A stretch of 64,000 nt of DNA from Escherichia coli (GTDB lineage: Bacteria > Pseudomonadota > Gammaproteobacteria > Enterobacterales > Enterobacteriaceae), in NCBI RefSeq assembly GCF_003334385.1, contig NZ_QOWN01000018.1, one strand, 5' to 3'. How positions within the stretch are numbered: position 1 is the stretch's first letter; the number at the start of each line of letters is the position of its first letter. Below are positions 40,729-45,589 of this stretch, piece after piece. Below the pieces are notes generated by a model. That model had not been told where the DNA came from. It saw only the letters and a program-made list of their open reading frames with translations, and did not search any database. The translations under genes were made by a program, and so were the position numbers.

Positions 40729-41526
40729 ATGTTTTTAGTCGACTCACACTGCCATCTCGATGGTCTGGATTATGAATCTTTGCATAAGGACGTGGATGAC
40801 GTTCTGGCGAAAGCCGCCGCACGCGATGTGAAATTTTGTCTGGCAGTCGCCACAACATTACCGGGTTATTTACATATGCGGGATCTGGTAGGCGAACGTG
40901 ACAACGTCGTATTTTCTTGTGGCGTGCATCCACTCAACCAGAATGATCCCTACGATGTAGAAGATTTACGCCGTCTGGCGGCAGAAGAGGGTGTTGTAGC
41001 GCTGGGTGAAACCGGGCTGGATTATTATTACACGCCGGAAACTAAAGTACGTCAGCAAGAGTCCTTCATCCATCATATCCAGATTGGTCGTGAACTGAAC
41101 AAGCCGGTTATCGTCCATACCCGTGACGCCCGTGCCGATACGCTGGCAATTCTGCGCGAAGAAAAAGTGACGGATTGCGGTGGCGTACTACACTGTTTTA
41201 CAGAGGACAGAGAAACGGCGGGTAAATTACTGGATCTCGGATTTTACATCTCCTTTTCCGGCATTGTGACCTTCCGTAATGCGGAGCAACTGCGCGATGC
41301 TGCGCGTTATGTCCCCCTGGATCGGTTACTGGTGGAAACTGACTCACCTTACCTTGCGCCGGTACCGCATCGAGGAAAAGAGAATCAACCTGCGATGGTT
41401 CGTGACGTTGCAGAATACATGGCTGTGTTGAAAGGTGTTGCCGTTGAAGAACTGGCGCAGGTAACCACCGATAACTTCGCCCGTCTGTTTCACATCGACG
41501 CTTCCCGCCTTCAATCCATCCGTTGA
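40729..41526 (+). CDS. ycfH: TatD-family metal-dependent hydrolase/nuclease YcfH
   Basis: ORF track 40669..41526; start placed at ATG 40729 ([16 protein letters not shown]...), 265 aa. Confidence 0.9.
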
Positions 41527-41700
41527 ATGAGTTTTTTTAAAGCTCGTAATTAATGGCTAAAACGAGTAAAGTTCACCGCCGAAAATTGGGCGGTGAATAA
41601 TCACGTTTGAAATATTGTGACATATGTTTTGTCAAAATGTGCAACTTCTCCAATGATCTGAAGTTGAAACGTGATAGCCGTCAAACAAATTGGCACTGAA

Positions 41701-41726
41701 TTATTTTACTCTGTGTAATAAATAAA
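41701..41726 (+). promoter_or_regulatory. Mlc-operator-like inverted repeat in the ptsG promoter region
   Basis: TTATTTTACTCTGTGTAATAAATAAA, with inverted TTATTT / AAATAA arms; about 95 bp upstream of the ptsG ATG. Confidence 0.5.
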
Positions 41727-41820
41727 GGGCGCTTAGATGCCCTGTACACGGCGAGGCTCTCCCCCCTTGCCACGCGTGAGAACGTAAAAAAAGCACCCAT
41801 ACTCAGGAGCACTCTCAATT

Positions 41821-43254
41821 ATGTTTAAGAATGCATTTGCTAACCTGCAAAAGGTCGGTAAATCGCTGATGCTGCCGGTATCCGTACTGCCTATCGCAGG
41901 TATTCTGCTGGGCGTCGGTTCCGCGAATTTCAGCTGGCTGCCCGCCGTTGTATCGCATGTTATGGCAGAAGCAGGCGGTTCCGTCTTTGCAAACATGCCA
42001 CTGATTTTTGCGATCGGTGTCGCCCTCGGCTTTACCAATAACGATGGCGTATCCGCGCTGGCCGCAGTTGTTGCCTATGGCATCATGGTTAAAACCATGG
42101 CCGTGGTTGCGCCACTGGTACTGCATTTACCTGCTGAAGAAATCGCCTCTAAACACCTGGCGGATACTGGCGTACTCGGAGGGATTATCTCCGGTGCGAT
42201 CGCAGCGTACATGTTTAACCGTTTCTACCGTATTAAGCTGCCTGAGTATCTTGGCTTCTTTGCCGGTAAACGCTTTGTGCCGATCATTTCTGGCCTGGCT
42301 GCCATCTTTACTGGCGTTGTGCTGTCCTTCATTTGGCCGCCGATTGGTTCTGCAATCCAGACCTTCTCTCAGTGGGCTGCTTACCAGAACCCGGTAGTTG
42401 CGTTTGGCATTTACGGTTTCATCGAACGTTGCCTGGTACCGTTTGGTCTGCACCACATCTGGAACGTACCTTTCCAGATGCAGATTGGTGAATACACCAA
42501 CGCAGCAGGTCAGGTTTTCCACGGCGACATTCCGCGTTATATGGCGGGTGACCCGACTGCGGGTAAACTGTCTGGTGGCTTCCTGTTCAAAATGTACGGT
42601 CTGCCAGCTGCCGCAATTGCTATCTGGCACTCTGCTAAACCAGAAAACCGCGCGAAAGTGGGCGGTATTATGATCTCCGCGGCGCTGACCTCGTTCCTGA
42701 CCGGTATCACCGAGCCGATCGAGTTCTCCTTCATGTTCGTTGCGCCGATCCTGTACATCATCCACGCGATTCTGGCAGGCCTGGCATTCCCAATCTGTAT
42801 TCTTCTGGGGATGCGTGACGGTACGTCGTTCTCGCACGGTCTGATCGACTTCATCGTTCTGTCTGGTAACAGCAGCAAACTGTGGCTGTTCCCGATCGTC
42901 GGTATCGGTTATGCGATTGTTTACTACACCATCTTCCGCGTGCTGATTAAAGCACTGGATCTGAAAACGCCGGGTCGTGAAGACGCGACTGAAGATGCAA
43001 AAGCGACAGGTACCAGCGAAATGGCACCGGCTCTGGTTGCTGCATTTGGTGGTAAAGAAAACATTACTAACCTCGACGCATGTATTACCCGTCTGCGCGT
43101 CAGCGTTGCTGATGTGTCTAAAGTGGATCAGGCCGGCCTGAAGAAACTGGGCGCAGCGGGCGTAGTGGTTGCTGGTTCTGGTGTTCAGGCGATTTTCGGT
43201 ACTAAATCCGATAACCTGAAAACCGAGATGGATGAGTACATCCGTAACCACTAA
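41821..43254 (+). CDS. ptsG: Glucose-specific PTS enzyme IICB
   Basis: ORF track 477 aa. Confidence 0.98.
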
Positions 43255-45503: not shown

Positions 45504-45589
45504 TTGAAATCTCTTGGTTTATGTTGTCGTCAGGCTCATGCCGGAGGAGGGTGATGAGCGATTATATTTAGTGTGCGAATAATTTTGTT

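Follow-up and report, generated by a model that had tools for sequence, protein, structure and literature searches.

Two Mlc-type operators, a conserved RNA stem-loop and an SgrS target in the ycfH-ptsG spacer of Escherichia coli

Control of ptsG sets the rate of glucose uptake in E. coli and is a model both for Mlc repressor sequestration and for small-RNA silencing by SgrS. The question raised by the locus described here is what the short spacer between ycfH and ptsG contains and how its elements are arranged relative to one another. The spacer was analyzed within a 64-kb stretch of E. coli DNA (the window). Our answer, to which we assign a probability of roughly 0.8, is that positions 41527-41820 comprise the ptsG control region in its standard form, to which the 3' end of the pabC-ycfH operon is joined. 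All of the major elements of the region are textbook knowledge for E. coli and the current picture of ptsG control is unchanged by our analysis. The additions are comparative: conservation of the upstream operator O2, a fixed operator spacing, the covariation and strand of a hairpin, and a -10 signature. They do not amount to a new kind of system. The E. coli K-12 ptsG regulatory region was reportedly described in 1998 by Plumbridge and by Kimata et al. as having two promoters (P1 and P2), CRP regulation and two Mlc sites. The window holds the same locus, and a private C-to-T change at 41601 (+ strand, AATAAC to AATAAT) is the sole difference of its spacer from that of strain MG1655.

The preliminary description of this DNA, made from the sequence, had named the flanking genes as ycfH and ptsG and given the spacer as 294 bp. 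Both statements are correct. The open reading frames that flank 41527-41820 are ycfH, the stop codon of which ends at 41526, and ptsG, the ATG of which is at 41821, and the spacer differs from that of MG1655 at only 1 of 294 bases. Over its full length the window can be aligned with MG1655, the identity being 99.977% (14 substitutions and one indel). The spacer is single-copy in 5,425 of 5,426 complete E. coli genomes. For comparison 80 ptsG loci of Enterobacterales and Aeromonas were fetched, of which 78 were tested for synteny, and in 77 of these ycfH lies upstream of ptsG. The ptsG coding sequence (41821-43254, + strand) specifies 477 residues and is 82-100% identical across the 80 loci. 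A search of 41300-42100 against Rfam at a permissive threshold gave two matches, both at chance level.

One genome of the comparative set, that of Rouxiella aceris, has a second locus (L076) carrying a further ptsG-like gene of 83% identity, in addition to the locus L048. The second gene lacks an upstream ycfH and is probably a paralogue in a different context.

Beginning 45 nt past the ycfH stop codon, the + strand encodes a conserved RNA stem-loop (41571-41598) consisting of nine perfect pairs plus a closing G·U pair around an 8-nt loop. Its arms are TTCACCGCC (41572-41580) and GGCGGTGAA (41589-41597), and the hairpin is exactly as first described, in stem, loop and distance from ycfH. The RNA folds at -21.2 kcal/mol as compared with -8.7 ± 2.9 kcal/mol for shuffled sequences (z = -4.3), and none of 200 shuffles folded as well. 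In the minimum-energy fold the stem-loop is enclosed by a predicted outer helix, AAACG (41560-41564) with CGTTT (41604-41608), which extends the + strand structure to 41560-41608. In the related loci of Enterobacter and Cedecea the outer helix is longer (GCGAG/CTCGT) and is followed by TTTT.

Conservation of the stem was assessed in 52 aligned loci chosen for unambiguous homology, a choice that excludes taxa having the stem in another register and thereby somewhat favors structure. In this alignment 86% of the cells pair and six of the ten pairs change on both sides. Double changes were found in 27 cells, whereas shuffles gave 6.1 ± 2.2 (0 of 500 reached the observed value) and slid controls paired at 39-60%. 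The taxa excluded by register were covered by folding each species separately, and in nearly all of the 75 folded loci a stable stem (at least -14 kcal/mol) lies 20-30 nt past O2. Wobble pairs are strongly asymmetric on the + strand, with 38 G·U cells versus 6 A·C cells. Because G·U outnumber A·C, the selected structure is + strand RNA rather than duplex DNA or a - strand transcript. An evolutionarily maintained RNA stem at this position, abutting what is probably a minor promoter, is relevant to the insulation of ptsG from the preceding housekeeping operon.

We read the hairpin as the 3' structure of the ycfH operon transcript, and as a full terminator in some genera. It resembles intrinsic terminators in being a stable GC-rich stem of 9-10 pairs located 45 nt past the stop codon of a co-directional gene, and in having a U-run in the orthologues of several genera. 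The T-run follows the stem directly in Erwinia, Pantoea, Mixta, Dickeya and Pectobacterium; Enterobacter reaches it via the extended outer helix. For Pantoea and Enterobacter the terminator scanner gave a terminator-like call on the + strand at the orthologous stem. The tail adjoining the stem is not U-rich in E. coli, E. albertii and Citrobacter, which in this respect differ from intrinsic terminators. Directly 3' of the stem a U-run is absent from both the window and MG1655 (TAAT/CCACGTTTG; window tail UAAUCACGUUUG), and the scanner made no + strand terminator call there. A further difference is that the 5' arm of the hairpin would double as the region just downstream of a promoter -10 hexamer. 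When 3' ends of ycfH at the hairpin were sought in one Term-seq data set (Adams 2021), its tables contained no ycfH entry, possibly owing to expression of ycfH that is too weak. We infer terminator activity for E. coli from these comparisons, and the hairpin there probably either terminates weakly or serves as a protective 3' stem. Its most likely effect would be to end or protect the ycfH transcript and thus limit read-through into ptsG.

The promoter element that adjoins the stem is a -10-like hexamer, TAAAGT (41567-41572, + strand), immediately 5' of the hairpin. We believe that it is probably the -10 of the minor promoter P2, a placement drawn from sequence conservation. A TAnnnT motif is found at a fixed offset from O2 in 59 of 75 loci; the other registers gave three loci at +1 and otherwise none. 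Within the 52-locus alignment the A at position 2 of the hexamer is invariant, and conservation of the T residues (positions 1 and 6) reaches 90% or more. The -35 element of P2 is weak (TCGTAA). A start 6-9 nt downstream of the hexamer would fall inside the 5' arm of the hairpin, and this agrees with a P2 start about 141 nt upstream of that of P1. As the start would lie within the arm, P2 transcripts should be unable to form the stem, which only ycfH read-through RNA could do.

These considerations bear on an alternative that we regard as unlikely, namely that the hairpin is not a ycfH 3' structure at all, and is instead a leader element of the long ptsG mRNA made from P2, a 5' stem that stabilizes or regulates that message. 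The strand bias of the wobble pairs is neutral on this point in that it shows only that the + strand RNA folds, and ycfH read-through RNA and P2 RNA are both + strand species. The proximity of the stem to promoter-like elements and the missing ycfH 3' end in the Adams 2021 tables fit the leader alternative. However, the only conserved -10-like hexamer ends at 41572, which is the first base of the 5' arm, and a transcript started 6-9 nt farther on omits most of that arm. Moreover, a T-run comes directly after the stem in Erwinia, Pantoea, Mixta, Dickeya and Pectobacterium, as expected of a terminator.

A second alternative is very improbable, namely that a dimeric regulator of P2 recognizes the dyad TTCACCGCC-N8-GGCGGTGAA as DNA and that RNA folding is irrelevant. 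This alternative would account for the overlap of the dyad with the stretch from the P2 -10 hexamer to the start, and for the unusual constancy of the stem sequence within Enterobacteriaceae (GTTCACCGCC...GGCGGTGA in most genera). It does not accommodate the quite different stem sequences that still pair in Yersinia, Erwinia, Dickeya and Pectobacterium, the freedom of the loop to vary, or the 38 to 6 excess of G·U over A·C, an asymmetry that duplex DNA cannot produce. A REP-like repeat element was also rejected as the 76-bp stretch 41565-41640 is present once per genome.

The operators bound by Mlc and its paralogue NagC are 23-bp imperfect dyads in which the sole invariant positions are TT and AA at ±5,6 (TT-9 bp-AA) (PMC4288165). 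Sites of the Mlc type have A or T at ±11 and AT-rich flanks, whereas strong NagC sites have C/G at ±11. ptsG is the reference Mlc target and a ptsG-lacZ fusion is the standard Mlc reporter (PMC4288165). By this description the spacer contains two Mlc-type operators. The downstream operator, O1 (TTATTTTACTCTGTGTAATAAAT, 41701-41723), is centered at 41712. It has TT-N9-AA, T at both ±11 positions, only A/T at ±7 to ±11, and 7 of 11 dyad matches. The upstream operator, O2 (TTTTTTTAAAGCTCGTAATTAAT, 41532-41554), is centered at 41543 and begins six bases past the ycfH stop codon; it shares with O1 the TT-N9-AA at ±5,6, the two T residues at ±11 and the restriction to A/T from ±7 to ±11, and has 5 of 11 dyad matches. 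The strict pattern WWWWWTT-N9-AAWWWWW occurs three times in the 64 kb, counting both strands, versus 0.6 expected, and two of the three matches are in the spacer.

Few blocks of the spacer are as conserved as the two operators, and O2 is almost as well conserved as O1. The TT-N9-AA motif is retained by O1 in 77 of 78 loci and by O2 in 71 of 78, and the same fractions (77/78 and 71/78) retain W at ±11. Twelve of the 23 columns of O1 are invariant across the 78 loci, and the O2 columns are mostly more than 90% conserved. O2 is centered at -175 from the P1 start. We take it to be the upstream Mlc site reportedly footprinted by Plumbridge in 1998, the reported position of which agrees with -175.

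The third strict match, TTATATTTAGTGTGCGAATAATT at 45562-45584 in the fhuE-hinT spacer, may be due to chance given that 0.6 matches are expected.

The preliminary description had found only one Mlc-type element, an inverted repeat TTATTT-N14-AAATAA at 41701-41726. The arms do exist, at 41701-41706 and 41720-41725, but the gap between them is N13 rather than N14 and the repeat ends at 41725. The Mlc-type interpretation itself is supported, at the level of sequence, by the overlap of the repeat with O1, which has every published defining feature of an Mlc operator. The operator is, however, centered at 41712 and the repeat at 41713. O2, which was missed, adds a second Mlc-type operator to O1 and does not replace it. 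A 6-nt AT-only repeat is unremarkable in an AT-rich spacer, whereas the Mlc-type pattern exceeds chance. Scanning the spacer for TT-N9-AA gave only one register over the AT-rich repeat (41701-41723). That Mlc reads the dyad TTATTT-N13-AAATAA itself, centered at 41713, is hardly credible: its arms are perfectly complementary and lie almost wholly inside the conserved block 41699-41726, but the TT/AA at ±5,6 that alone is invariant in all known Mlc/NagC sites is present only in the register centered at 41712, the right arm AAATAA reaches +13 and so extends beyond the 23-bp operator, and 24 of the 78 loci have T instead of A at 41722, which breaks the repeat and leaves TT-N9-AA intact.

Reading O1 in the register centered at 41712 places it directly over the main promoter. 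Published ptsG RNA templates begin at -103 relative to the start codon (PMC3089445 / PMC2760806), and from this 103-nt leader the P1 transcription start (+1) was derived as 41718 (+ strand). This numbering puts each of the published residues G76, A78, A82 and G89 on its proper base. O1 then spans -17 to +6 of P1 and is centered at -6. The likely P1 -10 hexamer, TACTCT (41707-41712, + strand), is assigned from its location 6 nt upstream of the start and lies inside O1; TTTTACTCT, the -10 region, is identical in 60 of 78 loci. Mlc bound to O1 would repress P1 by covering both the -10 hexamer and the start site, and Mlc on O2 would cover the -35 region of P2. One ChIP-qPCR study of MG1655 found neither Mlc nor Fis enriched at the ptsG promoter in glucose medium, a condition that is expected to release Mlc from DNA.

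Upstream of P1 is a CRP-like site, AAACGTGATAGCCGTCAAACAA (41667-41688), centered at 41677.5, which is -40.5 from the P1 start and near the -41.5 expected of a class II site. Its half-sites, CGTGA-N6-TCAAA, match 8 of the 10 bases of the consensus TGTGA-N6-TCACA. The site, too, ranks with the best-conserved parts of the spacer, and its distance from O1 does not vary among the loci compared (73 of 73). ptsG has been identified by SELEX as a CRP-activated promoter, and P1 would need cAMP-CRP bound at -40.5.

The distance between the operators is nearly constant. Center to center O1 and O2 are 169 bp apart in the window, 166-170 bp apart in 68 of 74 loci and 167-169 bp apart in 64 (Enterobacterales). 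The spacing is fixed although the intervening segment 41598-41665 is poorly conserved and leader length ranges between 95 and 232 nt. A distance of about 168 bp corresponds to 16 helical turns, which would place O1 and O2 on the same face of the DNA and suggests, on sequence grounds, that one Mlc tetramer may hold both operators. The spacing is compatible with cooperative binding or looping, and by itself is no proof of either. Instead of looping, a constant arrangement of P2, the hairpin and the CRP site could account for it. A close parallel is the control of nagE-nagB by NagC, in which DNA looping between two operators is established (PMC4288165). The two systems have in common a pair of TT-N9-AA operators, paralogous ROK repressors and a fixed helical-turn separation. 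They differ in that looping is established for NagC whereas for Mlc at ptsG the observation is a conserved spacing of about 168 bp, and in that the ptsG operators each overlap a promoter of one gene whereas the NagC operators are those of the divergent genes nagE-nagB. The near-fixed distance across the whole order bears on whether Mlc loops ptsG DNA.

Taken together with the hairpin, the spacing allows a broader proposal that we advance only tentatively and consider possible rather than probable. The spacer would be a module of fixed geometry throughout the Enterobacterales, having two Mlc operators about 168 bp apart such that P2, the CRP site and the ycfH hairpin could lie in a loop closed by one Mlc tetramer. 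The 5' arm of that hairpin would also be the initial transcribed region of P2, and the hairpin would stop only ycfH read-through, the P2 RNA escaping it.

The 5' end of the P1 transcript contains a stem-loop of its own, AGGGC-N8-GCCCT (41726-41743, + strand; +9 to +26). The inner four pairs form in 71-75 of the 78 loci, with C-G replaced by U-A in 21 loci and G-C by A-U in 11, and the structure is probably a 5' stabilizing stem. The scanner called a - strand terminator at the same coordinates, in other genera as well as in the window. We reject this call as an artefact of the leader stem adjoining the AT-rich operator; no - strand gene ends there.

Two further features of the leader may be mentioned. 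A C-rich block, GGCTCTCCCCCC (41755-41767), is 70-90% conserved across the order. In six loci, L005 and L006 (Citrobacter), L017 and L020 (Pseudocitrobacter), L029 and L047, the leader is longer by 80-120 nt and the distance from the O1 center to the ATG is 188-232 versus about 110 elsewhere, which implies that extra sequence has been inserted after the promoter and before the SgrS site.

The remaining element is the target of the sugar-stress small RNA SgrS at the ptsG ribosome-binding site. The translation initiation string AAAGCACCCATACTCAGGAGCACTCTCAATTATG given in the preliminary description is exact at 41790-41823, and the SgrS pairing over it that was proposed there is borne out both by duplex computation and by published footprint and mutant data on the very same bases. 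The pairing region is 41793-41812 (+ strand), which pairs with SgrS nt 168-187. The duplex has an 8-bp perfect core, ATACTCAG (41799-41806), flanked at one end by CACC plus a G·U pair and at the opposite end by GCAC. At its 3' end the core overlaps the Shine-Dalgarno sequence AGGAG (41805-41809, + strand), which was read from the sequence and is 11 nt before the ATG. The target block TACTCAGGAG is nearly invariant across the order.

The SgrS sequence was taken from MG1655 and duplexes were computed in 29-nt windows. With SgrS nt 168-187 the ptsG site gave -27.8 kcal/mol, the best of 25,590 windows (64 kb, both strands), against a background of -10.4 ± 3.05 kcal/mol. Note that the site stood out only in this restricted 29-nt scan; duplexes computed with whole SgrS or with long targets were sprawling, and 60-nt scans failed to single out the site. 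The G176C/G178C change, a published loss-of-function SgrS allele, weakened the duplex to -15.6 kcal/mol. A search with the complement of an SgrS 14-mer, permitting up to two mismatches, gave two matches versus 0.23 expected.

Compensatory mutations and footprints have been published for this segment of the ptsG mRNA (Rice and Vanderpool 2011, PMC3089445; Wadler and Vanderpool 2009, PMC2760806). The footprints, A82-G89 on ptsG and G168-U181 on SgrS, map onto the pairing region (PMC3089445, PMC2760806). The core of the published system, SgrS C174-U181 with ptsG A82-G89, is 41799-41806 of the window and overlaps the ribosome-binding site in the same manner, and the flanking pairing agrees with the weaker published footprints. 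The published label C92 falls on a G in our numbering, a discrepancy of 1 nt that affects only the flank. Pairing of SgrS within the 103-nt leader would cover the Shine-Dalgarno sequence, block ribosomes and trigger decay of the mRNA.

Published Term-seq data place RNA 3' ends at 41869 and 41909 (K-12 coordinates 1157917 and 1157957), both within the first 90 nt of the ptsG open reading frame, and the end at 41909 (1157957) is flagged as Rho-dependent. These ends suggest that transcripts are terminated prematurely or processed shortly after the SgrS site.

The T at 41601 that distinguishes the window spacer from that of MG1655 lies just 3' of the ycfH hairpin. Among 5,422 complete E. coli genomes there was no 100% match to 41565-41640 with T at this position, and all orthologues shown have C. 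A promoter scan of the window picked out TTCACC-18-AATAAT, a promoter-like sequence when T is at 41601. In evolution experiments with crp-deleted E. coli, repeated point mutations in the ptsG spacer created -10-like boxes and raised ptsG expression, and the T at 41601 creates a -10-like box of the type selected in those experiments. The change may be neutral.

Elsewhere in the window, 7 of the 12 coding differences from MG1655 are nonsynonymous. Two of these sites, 31696 (plsX codon 42) and 53788 (ldtC codon 180), were compared with other E. coli genomes; at both the window has the allele of most E. coli genomes and MG1655 is the outlier (PlsX S42 and LdtC L180). The notion that the differences are random noise added to the MG1655 sequence was rejected, as both of the sites tested carry the common E. 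coli allele. As MG1655 is the outlier at these two sites, the window is that of a natural K-12 relative.
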